Of a DNA stretch of 64,000 nucleotides, positions 7,388 to 58,207 are shown piece after piece. Numbering within the stretch: the first letter of the stretch is position 1; each line of letters starts with the position of its first letter. Under the pieces are notes generated by a model that saw only the letters and a program-made list of their open reading frames with translations, was not told the origin of the DNA and did no database searches. The position numbers were made by a program, and so were the translations under genes. This DNA comes from a phage: assembly GCA_025611195.1 (NCBI GenBank), contig GCA_025611195.1_4718.2, one strand, 5' to 3'.

Positions 7388-7412
7388 TTTATTATACCTC
7401 ATCGAAATCAAA

Positions 7413-7754
7413 TTAGTTAAATTCAGGTTTATCAGCAGCCAGACCAAGTCCAGCCAGTATTACGTAATCATACCAAGCTTTTACTTTTGCTTTCGCTTCA
7501 TCTAAACTATCTGCGTTGATGTGCGGAAACTCATCGTTGACTGGGAAAGGTAAATCGCAGTCGTAGCTTGTATAGTCTTTCCAACCTTTCCATTCGATAG
7601 TTAGAGAACCAAAAACGGTCTCAGCAACAACGTGGTTATAGCGACATTCTTCACATGGCGTACGCTCTTCCGACCAAACAAGCTCGTGCTGTGCTAAAAG
7701 TTGTTGTACGACCGATAATGGTTGCTCTTCATTAAGTTCGATACTGTCTATCAC
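7413..7754 (-). CDS. hypothetical protein (113 aa)
   Basis: ORF track. Confidence 0.45.
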   Translation of the reverse strand: MIDSIELNEEQPLSVVQQLLAQHELVWSEERTPCEECRYNHVVAETVFGSLTIEWKGWKDYTSYDCDLPFPVNDEFPHINADSLDEAKAKVKAWYDYVILAGLGLAADKPEFN

Positions 7755-26959: not shown

Positions 26960-27313
26960 ATGTCTAACACGCCCCTGAACGACTTTCTTAAGACAAACCC
27001 CGATGACCTCATCCACGATCTTGATTTCAGGAACGTTGTTGAGATGCATCTGGAATATTTCAAAAATGCCGGACTGGTCTCTACGATAGACATACCACCC
27101 GAACGCGCCTACGAATTCGATGGTAACTTTTATGGATTGTGTCGTGTTCTGCTCGGCGAGGGCAGTGAATCAATGCACTGGATCACCATGAGACTCAATG
27201 GTTATCGCGACCCTACGGAATACACGGCCGATGTTCTAACCATGAAGATTGTCGATACAAGCGCAATCAACACATTAAAACAGCAGTACCGCACAATCCA
27301 CTACAGCGCTTAA
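26960..27313 (+). CDS. hypothetical protein (117 aa)
   Basis: ATG at 26960 preceded by GAGGT; followed by a bidirectional hairpin. Confidence 0.4.
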   Translation: MSNTPLNDFLKTNPDDLIHDLDFRNVVEMHLEYFKNAGLVSTIDIPPERAYEFDGNFYGLCRVLLGEGSESMHWITMRLNGYRDPTEYTADVLTMKIVDTSAINTLKQQYRTIHYSA

Positions 27314-27318
27314 GATAA

Positions 27319-27347
27319 CCCTCCCACAGCGTAAAGCGTAGGGAGGG
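27319..27347. terminator. CCCTCCC / GGGAGGG hairpin between convergent genes
   Basis: 7-bp stem with 15-nt loop between plus stop 27313 and minus stop 27379. Confidence 0.55.
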
Positions 27348-27378
27348 CATTTATGCCGTCGTTCGTTGGCTTAGCACA

Positions 27379-28659
27379 TCAGAAACGATTTACAGTACGT
27401 CCTGTCCACGCACTCAGGATGTTGTTACGTTCCATCTCAGCCCGACGACGTAAACCGTTTGGCGACTGCGGTGCTGGCGGCATCCCCCACCCAGCAGGCT
27501 GCATACCCATACCAGGCCAAGCGGTATTATTGAACATCGTGCCGTTACGTTCCGCGACACGATTCATCAACGCATCAAACGTGCTATTACCTGCCGGTTG
27601 GTTACCACCACTTTCCCACTGATTAGGTTGAACAGGTGCGGTTTTACCTAACAGGTTATCAATCACGTTACTTGTTGCAGCAGGACGCGGTTGCATACCT
27701 TCATGTGCAGCTGCTGATGGATTTGGCTTAACCGTCGGCTGCGGACGACTGTTCAGCGTTACACCCATGTTGTATTTCGCTGGTGGAATCTGACCACGAT
27801 GTTGGGTAATCGGCTCAAAATCCTCGACCCAGGTAACATCGCAATAACCGTTCTCTTTACCGTCGTACTTATCACCAAACAGTTTGATGAGATTGTTCAG
27901 CGGTTCCATCAGCTTCGCGAAGCTGTGGATAAGACAATCGAAATAGGGAGCATGAGGATCGCTTGACCCAGCATTATACGTTTCACTTACTTCACCGGAG
28001 TGAGGGATAACGTACTCAACCAGGTTTCTCAGCATGTTAAGATCTTTCTTGGAAATCTCAACACCACACCAGTACGTTTTCTTATCTTTCGTGCTGATGT
28101 GTTCCTCTTCCATGAACGGGAAAGTAACTACCGCAACACGGGTCATCTTCTTACCCATGTAGGTTGCGCCGGTACGACGAAGATAAATTTTAGACAGCGT
28201 ATACGGTGTGTCGCGTTTCAACCAAACGGTAACCAGTTTGCCCAGGGTCGTTAATGTTTTATCGCTGGCGTCCGCAAGGATGTTGAAGAACTCTTTTTGC
28301 TTCGGTCCGAAACGTTTTGCTTCTTTAGGGTTGATTGCGGTTTCAACCATCCAAATCAGCATAGAACACAGCGTGGCGTTAAAACGAACAACCATCGCGC
28401 GACGCAGGAACTGAAGTACTTCCGATTCGCCGTTCATCACGTCTTCACTTAACGGATGGAACAACACGCGTTCAGCTAACTGGTTTCCGGTACGAACTTC
28501 GGGAACCGGCATCAGCAACGGCATGCTTTCCACGGTAGCGGCAACTGCAACAACTTTACCATCCCCATCCGTAAAACGATATTCTAATTCGTGGGCATCA
28601 TTCTCAAAATAGTTAACGCTTTGCAGCGCTTTGCGATAAGCTTCAATAAGCTTCGACAT
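27379..28659 (-). CDS. hypothetical protein (426 aa) with Pro/Gly/Met-rich low-complexity C-terminus
   Basis: ORF track; C-terminal GMGMQPAGWGMPPAPQ low-complexity tail. Confidence 0.5.
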   Translation of the reverse strand: MSKLIEAYRKALQSVNYFENDAHELEYRFTDGDGKVVAVAATVESMPLLMPVPEVRTGNQLAERVLFHPLSEDVMNGESEVLQFLRRAMVVRFNATLCSMLIWMVETAINPKEAKRFGPKQKEFFNILADASDKTLTTLGKLVTVWLKRDTPYTLSKIYLRRTGATYMGKKMTRVAVVTFPFMEEEHISTKDKKTYWCGVEISKKDLNMLRNLVEYVIPHSGEVSETYNAGSSDPHAPYFDCLIHSFAKLMEPLNNLIKLFGDKYDGKENGYCDVTWVEDFEPITQHRGQIPPAKYNMGVTLNSRPQPTVKPNPSAAAHEGMQPRPAATSNVIDNLLGKTAPVQPNQWESGGNQPAGNSTFDALMNRVAERNGTMFNNTAWPGMGMQPAGWGMPPAPQSPNGLRRRAEMERNNILSAWTGRTVNRF

Positions 28660-39064: not shown

Positions 39065-39740
39065 TCGCTACCTCATACCCGCAGCTTTACCTGCAGCTTC
39101 CGGTGTTACCGGAATGTCCAGAATACATCTTATCCATATTCCAAATGGAACGTAGGACTTCCGCGCTGGATCTCGCTTGAGACCACGTATTCGTTGAACG
39201 TTCTCCTGAACGGAGCTTCGCTGCTGATCGAACATTGTCGTGTACGGTAGGCATCCCCGAAGGGATTGTCATTGAAGCCGCGTACATCCGCTACCTTGTT
39301 TCTACCTTATCGGTTCCTCTTACGAGGCGTAGCGGCCTTAGCCCTTCCCAGCAATTCACGGAATCCAAGCTCTTCCTTTCGGAAGGCAGGGCCTATGATT
39401 AAGCATCCCCGTCGCTGTTATCGACTATATCTTCATCCTCGTTGCGAGGAGTCTCCCGTTTGGGTCTGTGTTTAACAGAGCCTACTCTACTCAACATCGC
39501 GTCTTTCGATAGTCTGTGAGCACACATCTTAACGAACATTCGTGGATTCCTAAACAGGTGAACGTTCTTGTTGAGATGCTTCGCTGCGGATTATTCCCGT
39601 CCTACCTCTTTTACCGTACCCAGTTCATTACGCTGGCCCTCATCTATGTCACCATGATGAGTTGGTGTGTAGTCCGATTACAGAAACTTCCCGTCAATTA
39701 GAGAGTTTTAACTACGTTCCTGTTACCAGAAACCAGATCC
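39065..39740 (-). ncRNA. group I intron-like element B (approximate boundaries)
   Basis: Minus strand carries Q-like AATCCGCAGCGAAG (39592-39579), R-like GCTCACAGACTATCG (39521-39507) and S-like GAAGATATAGTCG (39433-39423); no long ORF. Confidence 0.5.
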
Positions 39741-39814
39741 CGACGGTATCAATAAATCAACGTAAGTTATTGATTTAATTGAAAAACTGAAATCTGCATT
39801 ATCTAAATCTTCAG

Positions 39815-40185
39815 TATGGTTCGCTACTCCATACCCGTACCTCATGTACTGCTTACGTCTTTCACGTAAGGATAGACTATATCTTTCACCCTCAGCATTA
39901 TCTGGTCGGGGCTCCCATTTCGGCGGTCAGATGACCGGTGGTTTCCCACGCCGCTTGGCCCTAACGCCCGTAAGCGATAGTCGTTGAGCACATCTCCGTT
40001 CTGGAGACTTCGCTGCGGATTCCCCAATCCTTGCCGCTTTTACCGTACCTGAATGATTAGTTCAGCCCCACGCTCTGTTCCCAGGCATGGTTGGTGGACG
40101 AGGCTCTAAGTAGGTTCCCGCATTAGAGAGTTCCTCGTAACAACATTTCTGCGTTACTGGGCCTAACGACCCTTTCAAGATCATC
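39815..40185 (-). ncRNA. group I intron-like element A (approximate boundaries)
   Basis: Minus strand carries P/Q-like GGTAAAAGCGGCAAGG...AATCCGCAGCGAAG (40044-40008), R-like GCTCAACGACTATCG (39987-39975), S-like AAAGATATAGTC (39885-39875) and a P9-like hairpin CTTACG-TGAAAGA-CGTAAG. Confidence 0.55.
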
Positions 40186-41411
40186 ACGCTTAACCCGATG
40201 GTGTTATCCTGCGGATCGCGTTTAACCTTGGTGATTTCAAGACATTGGTTACTGCTTCGGTCAAGTGATGGGTTTCGAACAAAGCCGCACACAATCCCAT
40301 CGAACGGTGTATCAGCAATAAGCTCATCATGCAGCTCGCTCATCATCGGATGATAATTACGGACATGTTCCGCAACGAACGCACGTGCTGCTCTCGGTGA
40401 ATAACCGCGATGGAATAACTTGGATTGGATATGTTCTTTATTGGTTAAAGTAAATGGTGCGTATGGGAAATGCAGATGATAATAACGATGGTTCGCTGTT
40501 ATCGAACTGATTACGGTACGCGTGGTGAATGGATGTAATGTACCTAATATGTTTTTACGCGTGATACCTTTCTTCTTACCGATGAACTCATCGAAAATCG
40601 CCGCGTGGTATTGCAGCAGCTTCAATTGCACTTTCGCCATCCAGTTTTCTTTCTTTCTGGCGCTCAAAGGTGTTGTTGGATGATAGATACTATTCAGTGT
40701 ACCAATAGCATCGATCGCACCTTCCATTTTGCTATCTGCATAACGGCCGGTCGGTGTATTTTCGATAACGAACATCATGGCCGCAGGAAAGCTGATATAC
40801 TGACTGAAGAACTTATCACGATGGATACGGATGAATTCTCGTAGCGTGTCAACTTTCTCTGTGTTCTTCGGTCCACGTAATGTGGGTCCTTTATACAAGA
40901 TCTCCATGATGCGATCGAAGTTCTGTATAAAGCTATTTACACCACGCCGTATCCCGAATACATCAAATTGCTGCTCCAGATAGTTCTTGAGTTCAATGGG
41001 TCGTTTTACATTTGGACGGTAACTGGCATCAATGAGCCACGTCATCGTTTCGAAGCTTTTGATATTCAACTCGCTTGCCAGCACGAGATGGACCAACGGG
41101 TTAATGAACGCATCGATTCCTTCAGGGACACGCGCCCAGACCGTCGAACGAATCTCCTGTTCTGCTGGGTAGGTTACAACCGTTTTACAGTTTGGACACA
41201 CCGTGCCGAGCAACTCACCGCGATTGTAGAAACCACAACCACATTGTGGCGTGATATCCAACGTATCGCTGGAGTAAACACGGGTGATAAAACTGTTTAA
41301 TTTCTTCTTCTCTTCGACGACTTTTGTATCGTAATCGTTCAACAAAATCGGCGTAAAGGGAAGTTCTGCGAGCTGTCTATCGAAACTCACGATATCGAGC
41401 ATGATGGCCAT
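40062..41411 (-). CDS. RNA polymerase beta-prime subunit, N-terminal portion; 3' end of this ORF probably reads into intron A
   Basis: Zn-binding CGCGFYNRGELLGTVCPNC; GKKKGITRKNILGTLHPFTTRTVIS aligns with beta-prime [24 protein letters not shown]; ORF ends before any DFDGD catalytic loop. Confidence 0.6.
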   Translation of the reverse strand: MAIMLDIVSFDRQLAELPFTPILLNDYDTKVVEEKKKLNSFITRVYSSDTLDITPQCGCGFYNRGELLGTVCPNCKTVVTYPAEQEIRSTVWARVPEGIDAFINPLVHLVLASELNIKSFETMTWLIDASYRPNVKRPIELKNYLEQQFDVFGIRRGVNSFIQNFDRIMEILYKGPTLRGPKNTEKVDTLREFIRIHRDKFFSQYISFPAAMMFVIENTPTGRYADSKMEGAIDAIGTLNSIYHPTTPLSARKKENWMAKVQLKLLQYHAAIFDEFIGKKKGITRKNILGTLHPFTTRTVISSITANHRYYHLHFPYAPFTLTNKEHIQSKLFHRGYSPRAARAFVAEHVRNYHPMMSELHDELIADTPFDGIVCGFVRNPSLDRSSNQCLEITKVKRDPQDNTIGLSVMILKGSLGPVTQKCCYEELSNAGTYLEPRPPTMPGNRAWG

Positions 41412-46968: not shown

Positions 46969-47042
46969 AAATCCTCCAAAAGTTATTTAGTCTGTCTACA
47001 TCATCTCGTATATCTGTTAAAAAAGAAGGACGGCATAAAAAG

Positions 47043-47070
47043 AACCGATCCAGCCGAAGCCAGATCGGTT
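47043..47070 (-). terminator. AACCGATC / GATCGGTT hairpin followed by U-tract on minus strand
   Basis: 8-bp stem, 12-nt loop; minus-strand downstream sequence CTTTTTATGCC...CTTCTTTTTT; lies about 195 nt beyond the stop at 47265. Confidence 0.45.
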
Positions 47071-47264
47071 TAAAGGATAATAACTGACAGAAAGATATCG
47101 ATGATGTTCGTGAAACAAGATCTTCTCTCGTGTACAATGATGCCAGATCAGAGGGAGGTTGTAACACGAGAGGTGGTTCGCCAAAGAAGGAATAAAAACA
47201 CGAACCTATCTTATTTCACTGATGGCACTAACCACTCAAAATATATAGTACTGTATGTAAAAGT

Positions 47265-54465: not shown

Positions 54466-55290
54466 TTAACTATCGCTTTCTGATGTATCAACGTAGTTGA
54501 AAATACGATCCCGTAAACACTCGTAACGAGGCAATGCGCTAAGAATGATCATCTTCAGCTGCATCGCGATCGATACACGTTCTTCATCCGACGCGTCGTC
54601 TCCCCATTTACCTGGCTTAACCTGAATAGGTTCATGCGGATCCTGCGGAAATATGAAACTTAACAGCAGATAATCCGTACGGAACTCCCACACTTCTCGA
54701 CCGTCGTTATCGGTTTCTTTACGCAGCGTGAAGAGTTGACGTTCGGTGGTTGGATCCAACATCAGCGGTCGACCACGAACAATCTCCAGTTTACGTGGGC
54801 TGACGAACGTCGTACGTTCAGGAAGGTATTTTTCAACATCATCTGTATCCAACAAGAACAAAATGATATCGTCGAAATACTTCGGTGCGTACGTGTGTAT
54901 CGGTTCGCCATCGCTATACGAAGAGATCTCTTGGAGTATTGGCGTCTTAGACGAAAAGTTCTGGCATGAACCACGGGTGATCGGTAATGTGTCCCACTGA
55001 TGTTCTGTAGACAATTCGACAGGCACCAACGGATAATCATCGATGAAAACCACGCACGTTGTGTTGACGGGTATTCTTCCGTCATTGCCGGGTTCAAAAA
55101 CCAAACGTATTTTACCGGTAATCAGCGCCATCTCATCCGGCATTAAATGGCCTGCTGACCGAGCGAGTCTGAAACCGCTCGCCTGTTTATAAGGTTCGGG
55201 TTTATAGCCACGGACAATAAGAGAGATATCCGCAAGTTCAACGCTCACGAATGCATCTTTGGTGTCTTCATTGTTCGTCGTTAACGTCAT
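54466..55290 (-). CDS. hypothetical protein (274 aa)
   Basis: ORF track; ATG at 55290. Confidence 0.5.
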   Translation of the reverse strand: MTLTTNNEDTKDAFVSVELADISLIVRGYKPEPYKQASGFRLARSAGHLMPDEMALITGKIRLVFEPGNDGRIPVNTTCVVFIDDYPLVPVELSTEHQWDTLPITRGSCQNFSSKTPILQEISSYSDGEPIHTYAPKYFDDIILFLLDTDDVEKYLPERTTFVSPRKLEIVRGRPLMLDPTTERQLFTLRKETDNDGREVWEFRTDYLLLSFIFPQDPHEPIQVKPGKWGDDASDEERVSIAMQLKMIILSALPRYECLRDRIFNYVDTSESDS

Positions 55291-56305
55291 TGTTCATTTT
55301 CTCCGTTACAACAAATCGTTCAAGTTCACGTAATAAACGCTCTTTTAAAGCAGGATCAACTTCCGGAGCATGTTTATCGCGATACCATTCTGTCCCGTTG
55401 TATTGCAGGCTAACATGCCATGTTCCTAACGGGCTTTCCTCCGCAGCGGCGATGAAATTCTTAACGCCGGTTTTGGTAGGATACTCCATGATAGGAACAG
55501 CCTGCTTCGGATCCATTACGGTAAGATCCTGGAAGTTATAGTCCAGGAGCGTTAACGCGCGTTTGTCGCGTAGCAGTAATCCGCAATCCAAGATAGTGAA
55601 ATCGATACCCCAAAATTGTAGCTTACCGCCTGTACTGATAGGAATATGACCACGATAAACCGCGAGATAGATCTCCCCCTTATCGGTTTCTTTATTGTAC
55701 CCGGCAATGAATGCTGCGGTAATTAACGGCTGATCGCCTTTCGCAAAGAAAACAGGATGTGTACGATAAAGCCAATCATTACGGATTAAATCCGATACCT
55801 GGCCTAAACGTGCCGTGGGCACCATTGTCGATCCTAAGTCACTATTACTAACTTCGAATTGGTAATATTCAAACAGAACACCGTCGACTTCTTCTTTAGC
55901 GTATGGCTCACGAGCCGGATTAGCGAGTAAGTAACGTAACTTGCTATCGATTTCGGCTACGCGTTCCTCATGGGTATCCATACGACTAGCGACGACGAAA
56001 GCAGCCAGATTACGTACGCTAAGGAACACGTCGTCTTTCTCTTGGTCACTTAGTCCTTCTTCATCCGCTAACGTTGTCCAATGCAGTGGTCCCTCCACCA
56101 TCTTTAACCATTTGTCTTCACGCTCTGGGTAAACAAAGGGCTTGTGTACAGGAACGCTGGTATGCTGTACACGCAATAGTAACGAACAAGGGGATTGCGT
56201 TATCAACTCCCGCGGTACTATACCACTCGTGACAGCGATGACGTGACGATTAAGAACAAGAGAAGCTGAATAAGTGATATTATCTAATCCTGGTAATTGA
56301 TCCAT
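55268..56305 (-). CDS. hypothetical protein (345 aa)
   Basis: ATG at 56305 with AAGGA RBS; preceded by a 305-bp AT-rich intergenic region. Confidence 0.5.
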   Translation of the reverse strand: MDQLPGLDNITYSASLVLNRHVIAVTSGIVPRELITQSPCSLLLRVQHTSVPVHKPFVYPEREDKWLKMVEGPLHWTTLADEEGLSDQEKDDVFLSVRNLAAFVVASRMDTHEERVAEIDSKLRYLLANPAREPYAKEEVDGVLFEYYQFEVSNSDLGSTMVPTARLGQVSDLIRNDWLYRTHPVFFAKGDQPLITAAFIAGYNKETDKGEIYLAVYRGHIPISTGGKLQFWGIDFTILDCGLLLRDKRALTLLDYNFQDLTVMDPKQAVPIMEYPTKTGVKNFIAAAEESPLGTWHVSLQYNGTEWYRDKHAPEVDPALKERLLRELERFVVTEKMNNDVNDEQ

Positions 56306-56560
56306 GATAGAAATCCTTAGTATGTTTGATATGTTGTTTAATTGACATATTAAGTTTAAAAGAGGTTATGTTTTACGTATTGTTAATAACGTATTCTTAT
56401 CTCTATTAAGCTATGTTCTATCTAAAGATAGTAAACAGATATAATGCTCCCCACCTCCCCATTCTCCCAAGTAATACTGGCCTACCGGCCCTCTCCTTTT
56501 TAAGGGAGAGAGTAAGCATTCAGTATTGCTCAAATGAATAAGCAAAACAGTATAAACTTA

Positions 56561-56584
56561 CCGTCTCGAGACAACTCGAGACGG
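56561..56584. terminator. perfect 10-bp palindrome hairpin CCGTCTCGAG-ACAA-CTCGAGACGG with T-rich flanks on both strands
   Basis: Located 27 nt after the minus-strand stop at 56611. Confidence 0.6.
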
Positions 56585-56610
56585 CGTAGTGTCTGTTTAT
56601 CTCTTTTATG

Positions 56611-56949
56611 CTAACAACCTATTTCTGCATAAACCTTTAACGATTCGAATACATCTCCCTTCTTTATCATCGTCTTGTACAAACGTGATTGAGCAATGAT
56701 CTTTATCCATTGTTGCGGATCGTGTAAATTCACATTTTCAAAACGGGGTGGGGTATTATCTCCGTCGAGTCGGATATACCCTAAGAGCAATCCTTCATGG
56801 TGTCCTCGACGGATTTCGATATGTGGTTTGAGGGAGGTATGATTGTCTGGTGGATACCAGCTTACGGTGTAATAATGGTTTCCTGAAACAACGATTTCGT
56901 GAACGGTTTTTGTTTCATCGTCAATGATCGCGTTTACGCTGGGGATCAT
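56611..56949 (-). CDS. hypothetical protein (about 112 aa)
   Basis: Start moved to ATG at 56949 (MIPSVNA), overlapping the upstream stop (TAATG); the track ORF extends 100 nt into the upstream gene. Confidence 0.4.
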   Translation of the reverse strand: MIPSVNAIIDDETKTVHEIVVSGNHYYTVSWYPPDNHTSLKPHIEIRRGHHEGLLLGYIRLDGDNTPPRFENVNLHDPQQWIKIIAQSRLYKTMIKKGDVFESLKVYAEIGC

Positions 56950-57548
56950 TAATTTTTGAAGCATGGGACATAAACCTCCATCAACATCGCATAAAGCGCA
57001 CCAAGCCCATGCAGGACTCGGTCGGGTGCAAAGGTTGGTGTGTAACATACTTGTTCGGTTGGTGCTTGTTGACGTAAGTCTAACGGATCTCCGTTGATAA
57101 GCATCTGCAGGAGATCAACATCATCTTGCAATGTATCCTCATCGATGTATGCATCAACAAAAAGCAATCGGTGTAACTGTTCCGGTTTAATCGAAATACC
57201 TACAACCATGCAGTTGTTGTAGGTGGCGTTGTCCAGAAAGAAGTGAATGACGCCCGCTTGTGGATCGCCGTTGTAATGCAGCCATCGCGTAAAGCCAGCC
57301 GACATCATCCACAGTGGATTGTGTTGTAGCGCACTGACGACACGGGTCTCGAATTCCAAACCAAACTTCTGGAAGATTGCGCCCATCTGGAAACGATCTT
57401 CATCGAGACGGTAACGGAATATACAAGCATCCGATCCCGTTGAGTTGTCGTACACCGAAAGATACCCGCGATGGATTTCCACGGTAACATTGTTGTCGTC
57501 AAGCGTGGCGCTCGCAACGCCGTTAGAAAAGGTTGGAACAAAGCTCAT
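56949..57548 (-). CDS. hypothetical protein (199 aa)
   Basis: ORF track. Confidence 0.45.
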   Translation of the reverse strand: MSFVPTFSNGVASATLDDNNVTVEIHRGYLSVYDNSTGSDACIFRYRLDEDRFQMGAIFQKFGLEFETRVVSALQHNPLWMMSAGFTRWLHYNGDPQAGVIHFFLDNATYNNCMVVGISIKPEQLHRLLFVDAYIDEDTLQDDVDLLQMLINGDPLDLRQQAPTEQVCYTPTFAPDRVLHGLGALYAMLMEVYVPCFKN

Positions 57549-58096: not shown

Positions 58097-58207
58097 CGCT
58101 TTGCCTTCCGCGAGTGTAATCAGGAAGGTAATGTAGGTTTATTTTAATCTCCATTTCGCGATGATATGACAGTCTTTATTACGTTTACCATCTGAGGGAG
58201 CATGCTC

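Follow-up and report, generated by a model that had tools for sequence, protein, structure and literature searches.

A conserved, putatively structured non-coding block in an intergenic gap of a Goslar-like jumbo phage

Introduction

[quoted passage not shown] This phage family does not transcribe with the host polymerase (PMC7598289). A family of early promoters, TATATTAC, has been published (PMC7058600), and TATG is the start-site consensus of the non-virion polymerase of phiKZ (PMC7598289, PMC7618050), all four bases of which were required in vitro (PMC7598289). Furthermore, intergenic small RNAs and small RNAs derived from 5' untranslated regions (UTRs) have been reported in 201phi2-1 and phiKZ (PMC11512511), and unannotated RNA peaks in PhiPA3 (10.1101/2023.09.22.559000). 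Here, a 305-nt non-coding gap (positions 56306-56610) was analyzed in a 64,000-nt stretch of phage DNA (contig GCA_025611195.1_4718.2; hereafter the window), with emphasis on a conserved block of ~130 nt within it, termed block A. We read the gap as a control junction on the minus strand, between an early operon (gp210-gp208 homologues) and the next operon (gp207 onward). The junction would be otherwise ordinary in carrying a terminator, a promoter and a leader, to which a conserved, apparently structured non-coding module is added on the sense strand. Most probably, block A is transcribed, as a regulatory leader or as a small RNA.

Conservation of block A

A megablast search with 55268-57048 matched Goslar (95% identity, full length), and the gene order of the window is that of Goslar. 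Sixteen distinct versions of the gap were collected from IMG/VR, ENA, Logan, NCBI and JGI contigs, which grouped into close Goslar-like genomes and a more distant clade, here the L010 clade (84% identical overall). An exhaustive HMMER search yielded one further cluster, 36% identical to the 345-amino-acid (aa) protein encoded beside the gap (contigs L035-L040; the L035 lineage). In this lineage the entire gene order is kept from the early promoter to PhuZ, with a 269-nt gap at the same place, at identities of 56% for PhuZ, 36% for gp207 and 36-38% for the flanking genes. Since MAFFT misplaced G-rich blocks across the Goslar and L035 lineages, local alignment and motif anchors were used there instead. 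The divergent tail of contig L022 was left out as artefactual, since it ended in Illumina adapter sequence. Pattern scans of public viral and metagenome contigs returned Goslar-like genomes only, plus one chance match (L041). The features on which the following analysis centers are:

56306-56610: the gap, 305 nt, non-coding, with neighbouring genes all on the minus strand
~56413-56545, minus strand: block A, a conserved non-coding block of ~130 nt between a terminator-type hairpin (hairpin T) and an AT-rich spacer
56448..56471, minus strand: conserved G-rich tract CUUGGGAGAAUGGGGAGGUGGGGAG, the 5' part of which is the descending arm of helix P1
56458..56542, minus strand: long irregular hairpin of 85 nt, the core of block A, from an RNAalifold consensus of 8 distinct sequences
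56521-56542 with 56458-56479: helix P1, 20 pairs, 7 of them G.U
56511-56517 with 56480-56486: helix P2
within 56489-56508: apical stem, identical with the CTCTCC/GGAGAG hairpin noted in the original prediction for this gap

Among four genomes that are ~94-95% identical, 56413-56584 was free of substitutions except for one loop inversion, with ~7 variable columns per 100 in the flanks. Compared with the L010 clade, block A differed at 7 of 133 positions; at four-fold degenerate sites of gp205, gp206, gp209 and gp210 the fraction differing from that clade was 0.30-0.52. The few variable positions across all sixteen versions comprised a (CU)n register shift, an AA/GU dinucleotide, position 56456 and a handful more, 56456 being the one freely variable base (A/C/U) of the G-rich tract. 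Judged by these substitution counts, block A is shown to be under strong purifying selection. Local alignment extended the comparison to L035, with 40 identities in 53 columns, a result matched by 2 of 1000 shuffles. The shared stretch recovered was GGCCG(G)TAGGC ... CTTGGGA(GA)ATGGG(G)AGG(Y)GGG(G)AG..CAT, the homologous stretch in the 269-nt gap of L035 reading GGCCGTAGGC...CTTGGGAATGGGAGGCGGGAG..CAT. On this alignment, partial conservation of block A beyond the genus is shown.

Rfam 15 gave no match in the whole window at the gathering threshold, and in E-value mode over 56250-56680 returned only sno_ncR3 (24 bits, threshold 88) and SraC (15 bits, threshold 37). A covariance model of block A (R1) found only its own locus in Goslar and the window, without paralogues, and nothing in L035-L040. 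No similarity was detected to E. coli genomes as host, to plasmids or to other phages, and ARAGORN predicted no tRNA or tmRNA gene across the window. Several signals suggested by the letters of block A were rejected. A cluster of Shine-Dalgarno (SD) sequences, or a plus-strand mimic of the anti-SD sequence, is incompatible with 56456, the central base of GGAGG, being the most variable (A/C/U). The Chi-like site GGTGGTGG of the L010 clade is not kept among clades or in L035, and the T7 class II signal ATCTGTT reads ATCAGTT in two clades and belongs to a polymerase of the wrong type. Only two-layer arrangements of a G-quadruplex are possible.

Predicted RNA structure of block A

The 92 nt of 56455-56546 folded with -35.1 kcal/mol (z = -4.0) as minus-strand RNA and -26.9 kcal/mol (z = -3.4) as plus-strand RNA, and the 85-nt hairpin alone with -33.2 kcal/mol. 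In the window, the minus strand thus folds more stably than its shuffles, as a generic structured RNA does on one strand. In L035 the sense fold reached -36.8 and the antisense fold -12.8. The fold of block A is biased to the sense strand.

All 34 consensus pairs held in each of the 8 distinct sequences, every change being a C or U opposite G. The majority of these one-sided C/U changes (n=7) arose from one register shift of (CU)n within the apical stem. The independent stem substitutions (n=2, at 56542 and 56480) were minus-sense C-to-U changes that yield G.U pairs, where the plus strand would have A.C; this preference for the minus sense, expected ~1 in 4 times by chance, is only a hint.

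In a manual alignment, two-sided differences from L035 were seen in the apical stem and at one middle-helix pair. An anchor helix, UUUGAG/CUUGGG, is spaced by 63 nt in the window and 62 nt in L035, which has an apical 7-bp hairpin of unrelated sequence at the same place, and whose pyrimidine-rich 5' end and G-rich 3' end pair with each other. The RNA architecture of block A is therefore plausibly, as far as these alignments suggest, conserved across lineages.

The original prediction had listed three palindromes in the gap. All three inverted repeats lie where they were placed, but the most important element is the ~130-nt block with its 85-nt hairpin and G-rich tract, which went unseen. The weaker hairpin of that prediction (CTCTCC at 56491-56496, GGAGAG at 56505-56510) is present in sequence and yet not a separate element, as it is just the tip of the 85-nt hairpin.

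Putative transcription signals around block A

The remaining features of the locus are:

55268-56305, minus strand: homologue of Goslar_00207 (gp207), 345 aa
56306..56378, minus strand: block B, with proximal box TAATATGTC, a 41-nt leader and the SD sequence AAGGA
56318-56314, minus strand: SD sequence AAGGA of the 345-aa gene
56349-56346, minus strand: TATG in block B, 41 nt upstream of the start codon of the 345-aa gene, its G at 56346 being the putative +1
56379..56412, strand not assigned: AT-rich variable spacer, 23.5% GC, diverging freely
56418..56431, strand not assigned: dyad CTATCT-AA-AGATAG (6+2+6), arms invariant in the Goslar clade bar one change
56548..56556, minus strand: box TTTATACTG, a one-base variant of the post-hairpin TTTATGCYG, with A at 56551 in the place of the +1 G
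56561..56584, minus strand: hairpin T, CCGTCTCGAG-TTGT-CTCGAGACGG, 26 nt past the stop codon of the upstream early operon
56611-56964, minus strand: homologue of Goslar_00208 (gp208), 117 aa
58126..58135, minus strand: early (virion RNA polymerase) promoter core of the upstream operon, ~57 nt before the gp210 homologue

Five minus-strand copies of TAYATTACYT were found in the window (13950, 31983, 37261, 43470, 58126) against 0.5 expected. In Goslar the corresponding motif has 13 sites, all on the minus strand, with the consensus TTTCACGgCTAyATTACyTnnGTGA, in agreement with the published early-promoter family (PMC7058600); the copy at 187630, counterpart of the 58126-58135 promoter, is among them. 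A matrix derived from the 13 sites scored true cores at 20-28 bits and background at no more than 14. Given the promoter at 58126-58135, the upstream operon would be early, with transcripts running toward the gap. L035 has an early promoter upstream in the same arrangement; there, the promoter of the syntenic operon is immediately followed by an inserted gene with I-TevI/NUMOD3-type domains (L035 1768-2412). An early promoter within block A itself (AGTATTACTTGGGAGAA / TATTACTT) was rejected on its core score of 1.0 (rank 88 of 474,580; full motif -12.3), and L035 has ATGTTC there. No sigma-70 promoter was found in the gap by scan; sigma-70 logic is in any case inapplicable, since the family transcribes with its own polymerases.

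The 10-bp palindrome CCGTCTCGAG/CTCGAGACGG of the original prediction was confirmed at 56561-56570 and 56575-56584, including two true XhoI sites. As minus-strand RNA it forms hairpin T, a stable G+C-rich stem-loop of 10-11 pairs and -20.5 kcal/mol. The stem is preserved in relatives. In L026 and L030, stem position 7 changed from C to U together with its partner from G to A, a compensatory replacement of C-G by U-A. L028 has one G.U pair, and the L027 version is the exact reverse complement of that in L028. The loops occur as inverted pairs (TTGT/ACAA, ATAA/TTAT, AATC/GATT), implying that the whole hairpin was flipped at least three times. Opposite orientations were seen in different genomes both here and at the dyad (56571-56574 and 56424-56425; also L004, L013 and L026-L030), so that small inversions between arms appear to recur. 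The stem is followed by UAAGUUUAUACUGUUUU and not directly by a U run, and a scan for the intrinsic-terminator consensus did not report it. Hairpin T is absent from the L010 clade; in its place the L035 lineage has a typical hairpin, CCTTCCTCC...GGGAGGAAG, followed by TTCTTATGC with the canonical TTATGC. In outline, these observations support a hairpin T that behaves like a selected stem-loop at a place where a terminator would be expected.

Goslar contains 26 intergenic TATGCYG copies, nearly all of them immediately downstream of a hairpin whose 5' arm is C-rich and 3' arm G-rich, and these modules look like combined terminators and TATG starts. TTATGC is enriched fourfold in Goslar non-coding DNA and TTATAC is not enriched; a second hairpin followed by TTATAC lies 37 nt before Goslar gp188. 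A nearly palindromic element, CATAttCCCTCCTCCTTCCCTTACGGGTTGGAGGAGGGTTATG, is present in 13 copies in the Goslar genome (L005-L009; e.g. at 27750, 71994 and 134589), the 26 modules being the broader set. A transcript that includes block A might have its distal start at the box TTTATACTG.

Block B is conserved across the Goslar and L010 clades despite an adjoining 58-nt AT-rich insertion in the latter, between 56379 and 56378, and its TATG is present in all Goslar-clade sequences. L035 has the box TATTATGACCATTTAAACAA 45 nt before the ATG, although the similarity to block B is not significant alone (300 of 1000 shuffles). The block B box, which lies in the AT-rich gene-proximal half and is the only conserved promoter-like box, is a possible promoter start. 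Two independent Logan contigs, L020 and L021, both break at the same base, ~215 nt past the gp208 stop; the break falls at the edge of the 58-nt insertion, which suggests within-sample polymorphism of the spacer. No convincing terminator was found between block A and the 345-aa gene.

Composition of the gap, repeats and neighbouring genes

The gap is bounded by the start codon of the 345-aa gene (ATG, 56305-56303, minus strand) and by the stop codon of the gene upstream (56611-56613), and the equivalent 308 nt carry no annotated feature in the Goslar record. Its description as a 305-bp AT-rich non-coding region upstream of 55268..56305 was accurate, with a guanine-plus-cytosine (GC) content of 35.4% vs 45.7% for the window, below 99.8% of equal-size windows. 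The gene-proximal 107 nt (56306-56412) have 24% GC, and in the 237-kb Goslar genome only one 150-nt stretch is more AT-rich than the equivalent of the gene-proximal half. Folds of the whole gap were unusually stable on both strands (z = -5.8 minus, -7.1 plus).

The claim that this is the longest gap besides the intron region holds within the window, as other large gaps in the open reading frame (ORF) map were coding (7403-7750, with a GTG start), occupied by an annotated plus-strand gene (~27094-27378) or shorter. The last is the second long gap, 46969-47264 (~296 nt), where a terminator, TTTTATGCCG and a leader account for the last 110 nt and not for the first 190 nt. Outside the window, an 854-nt unannotated gap of Goslar (14972-15825 in L005) holds the most AT-rich stretch of the genome along with a G+C-rich hairpin, an early promoter and one copy of the 13-copy element.

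Shuffles of the region contained a 10-bp arm in 0.5% of cases. Arms of 6 bp are common, numbering 5 against a shuffle mean of 1.0 (P ~0.02 for the total), so that the two short repeats (the 14-bp dyad and CTCTCC/GGAGAG) are unremarkable alone. Repeats shared between the gap and the rest of the window were 10-12-mers at chance level only, and no repeat family was found within the gap beyond short chance-level pairs. The predicted 14-bp palindrome CTATCTAAAGATAG (56418-56431) exists but is not perfect, being a 6-bp inverted repeat around a non-palindromic AA. Within the Goslar clade its 3' arm changed from A to G in L018/L023 and its center was flipped (TT/AA) in L026/L034. No second copy was found in the window or in Goslar, and L035 lacks the dyad, carrying TAAGTTA-N13-TAACTTA and three CAGTTA repeats in its place. 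A role as operator thus draws support from Goslar-clade conservation only, for a sequence unique in its genome and replaced by another dyad in the distant lineage.

The 345-aa and 117-aa flanking proteins had no Pfam or PHROG matches, and protein searches found neither gene outside Goslar-like phages. A single-sequence AlphaFold model of the 345-aa protein was unusable, with a predicted local distance difference test (pLDDT) value of 34. PhuZ lies 4 kb and chimallin 13 kb from the gap. The N-terminal two-thirds of the 345-aa ORFan (55600-56260, minus strand) is a diversity hot spot with 33-46 variable columns per 100 among genomes otherwise ~94-95% identical, with an abrupt change at the start codon. 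Elsewhere in the window, two adjacent group I intron matches on the minus strand (39415-39781 and 39853-40189) scored 46.9 and 29.6 bits, below the Rfam threshold of 50, and so were missed by the gathering-threshold scan. A crude map of ORFs of at least 45 aa with ATG starts shows no long ORF in the window where Goslar has an intron-adjacent HNH endonuclease gene. Furthermore, Goslar-like contigs of 236-247 kb were present in many Salmonella enterica and E. coli isolate assemblies (NCBI, ENA, Logan), which suggests carriage or contamination of cultures by such phages.

Proposed mechanism and alternative explanations

Early transcripts would start at 58126-58135 and reach the hairpin at 56561-56584, which would act as terminator or attenuator. 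Block A, just downstream, would be transcribed in sense, either by read-through or with a start at the TAT(A/G)C box beyond the hairpin. A hairpin separates the early operon from block A in two of three lineages; in the L010 clade, which lacks it, block A must be co-transcribed, with read-through as the sole route. The RNA of block A would fold into the 85-nt irregular hairpin followed by the G-rich tail. With no terminator ahead of the 345-aa gene, the simplest view of block A is as the distal portion of a ~245-nt leader or inter-cistronic spacer in the mRNA of that gene. The second TATG box (56346-56349) would give a short 41-nt leader without block A, and block A would act in cis, as RNA, by affecting how the long mRNA form is processed or translated or how stable it is. 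We tentatively prefer this explanation, a long leader or inter-cistronic element that works in cis and can be bypassed from the proximal TATG start, while granting it somewhat less than an even chance. The suggestion that the gap is a regulatory hub or encodes a small RNA was supported in outline by the stem-loop placed as a terminator, the conserved promoter-like box and the structured block; its details were not.

Block A may instead be an independent small RNA of the minus strand, ~110-190 nt long and acting in trans through its G-rich tail or loops on other phage or host RNAs or proteins; it would start at the TAT(A/G)C box and end near the dyad. The reach of conservation into unpaired positions, strongest in the cross-lineage G-rich tract, is as expected of a seed or protein-binding site. 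Moreover, an L035 RNA begun at the TATG start would have its structure closed by pairing of its 5' end with GGGAGGC, and intergenic small RNAs occur in related phages (PMC11512511). Such an RNA would nevertheless have no convincing 3' end, since the dyad hairpin amounts to merely -3.4 kcal/mol without a U run and L035 offers none better. The covariance model also found no paralogue or target-like repeat, host DNA similarity is lacking, and the base at 56456, the most SD-like one of the G tract, varies more than any other; we consider this explanation unlikely. Somewhat more doubtful is a region that works at the DNA level only, with promoters, a terminator and a regulator site in the dyad or G-rich block, the RNA fold being incidental. 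Conserved dyad arms around a free center are what a dimeric binder would leave, L035 has a dyad of different sequence at the same place, and AGTATTACTTGGGAGAA in block A resembles the early-promoter core. That resemblance scores 1.0 on a matrix giving at least 20 to the 13 true sites, however, and its TATTAC is ATGTTC in L035. In addition, ~130 contiguous conserved bases far exceed a protein site and the dyad is unique in the genome, while the fold is strand-asymmetric, with a long helix so rich in G.U that it makes a good RNA helix and a poor DNA palindrome.

A more specialized RNA is improbable, namely a dedicated riboregulator or R-loop-forming primer RNA made and acting inside the ribosome-free phage nucleus; if it were real, the conserved G-rich tail, with one of the most AT-rich stretches of the genome after it, could mark a replication start or an early/late transcription switch. 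The T4 oriF/oriG and ColE1 origins are the comparison for an R-loop-type replication origin proper, in which a start site is followed by a G-rich non-template tract stabilizing the RNA-DNA hybrid and by an easily melted AT stretch. The elements stand in a fitting order (TAT(A/G)C box, G-rich 56448-56471, 24% GC DNA), the AT-rich stretch is the second most extreme of Goslar, the 58-nt AT-rich insertion is tolerated as if composition alone mattered, the element is unique in the genome, and a literature search found no paper identifying an origin in this phage family. The cumulative GC skew of Goslar, though, has its minimum at 215 kb and no extremum near 186 kb, iterons are absent, and AT-richness is equally expected of a promoter and leader, so that an origin here seems very improbable. 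The chance is similarly slender that block A is functionless, either a recombination linker beside the hypervariable gp207 cassette or a stretch recently exchanged among phages. The hot spot in the adjacent gene implies frequent exchange with nearby break points and the repeated flips of hairpin loops show active rearrangement of the DNA, yet conservation persists where PhuZ is 56% and the flanking genes 36-38% identical, and the spacer adjoining block A diverges freely.

An unannotated small protein is the most improbable explanation of all. Candidate ORFs exist on the minus strand (33 aa, 56519-56418) and the plus strand (42 aa, 56413-56541), as does a 7-codon mini-ORF after GGAGGUG; a paired one-base insertion and deletion restores the frame of the minus ORF in the L010 clade, and L035 has GGGAGAUCAUG and then a 9-codon ORF at the matching place. 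No small-ORF coding signal was found across relatives for the plus or minus ORF. In the L010 clade the plus ORF has its start changed to CTG and an AGA to TGA. The minus ORF lacks an SD sequence, its ATG is TTG in two clades, its stop is lost or moved in L026 and L018, and six of its seven point changes are non-synonymous against one synonymous; the mini-ORF has an AUU start in the Goslar clade and a stop that is not conserved. By this comparison, block A is shown to be without coding signal.

Several findings weigh against a cis-acting structured leader. The near-total conservation of block A, loops included, exceeds the needs of a simple stability hairpin. No two-sided change occurred among the 34 pairs in the Goslar clade, a count for which the shuffle control was uninformative. 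The L035 fold was no more stable than its shuffles (z = -1.15) and two P2 pairs are broken there. The firmest signal across lineages therefore appears to be conservation of primary sequence, above all of the G-rich tract. The box after hairpin T in the window is TATA and not TATG. Finally, a literature search found no published transcription map, transcriptome or non-coding RNA of Goslar, so that we infer the transcription of block A, its strand, its RNA start and end, and its role.

Should block A prove to be merely a leader hairpin, the result would be an ordinary one. Its interest lies in being short, strongly constrained, unique in the genome and common to two lineages, between an early operon and a hot-spot gene. 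Furthermore, the definitions of the early promoter (13 sites) and the terminator/TATG module (26 sites) should be useful for Goslar annotation and engineering.

Comparison with known systems

With chimallivirus early promoters (TATATTAC; PMC7058600, PMC7598289), block A shares TATTACTT and GG.GAA in register, but it lacks TTTCAC and GTGA, scores as background and does not keep the resemblance in L035. In showing a hairpin, then a T-run and then TAT(G/A)C, the junction resembles the phiKZ-type terminator and TATG modules, of which the distant lineage carries a canonical example here. The window hairpin differs in being a perfect mixed-sequence palindrome rather than the C-rich/G-rich type, with the box 4 nt off the stem and reading TATA, and the terminator scan made no call.

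The early mRNA of T7 carries intercistronic RNase III processing hairpins, which are shorter than block A and tolerant of sequence change. As in T7, a long irregular hairpin lies on the sense strand between early cistrons of an E. coli phage, that of block A having ~34 pairs in three stacked helices. Block A differs in being conserved base by base and in its G-rich tail.

Block A can also be compared with the small RNAs of chimalliviruses, i.e. sRNA005 of 201phi2-1 and the phiKZ small RNA upstream of gp182 (PMC11512511), together with the PhiPA3 peaks. Like these, block A is non-coding and apparently structured, lies between a terminator and the gene that it precedes, and is shared by related genera. 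The neighbour here is an ORFan and not a tail protein, and those RNAs, unlike block A, were seen as transcripts. Since comparable UTR and intergenic small RNAs have been sequenced in 201phi2-1, phiKZ and PhiPA3, block A would not be new in kind.

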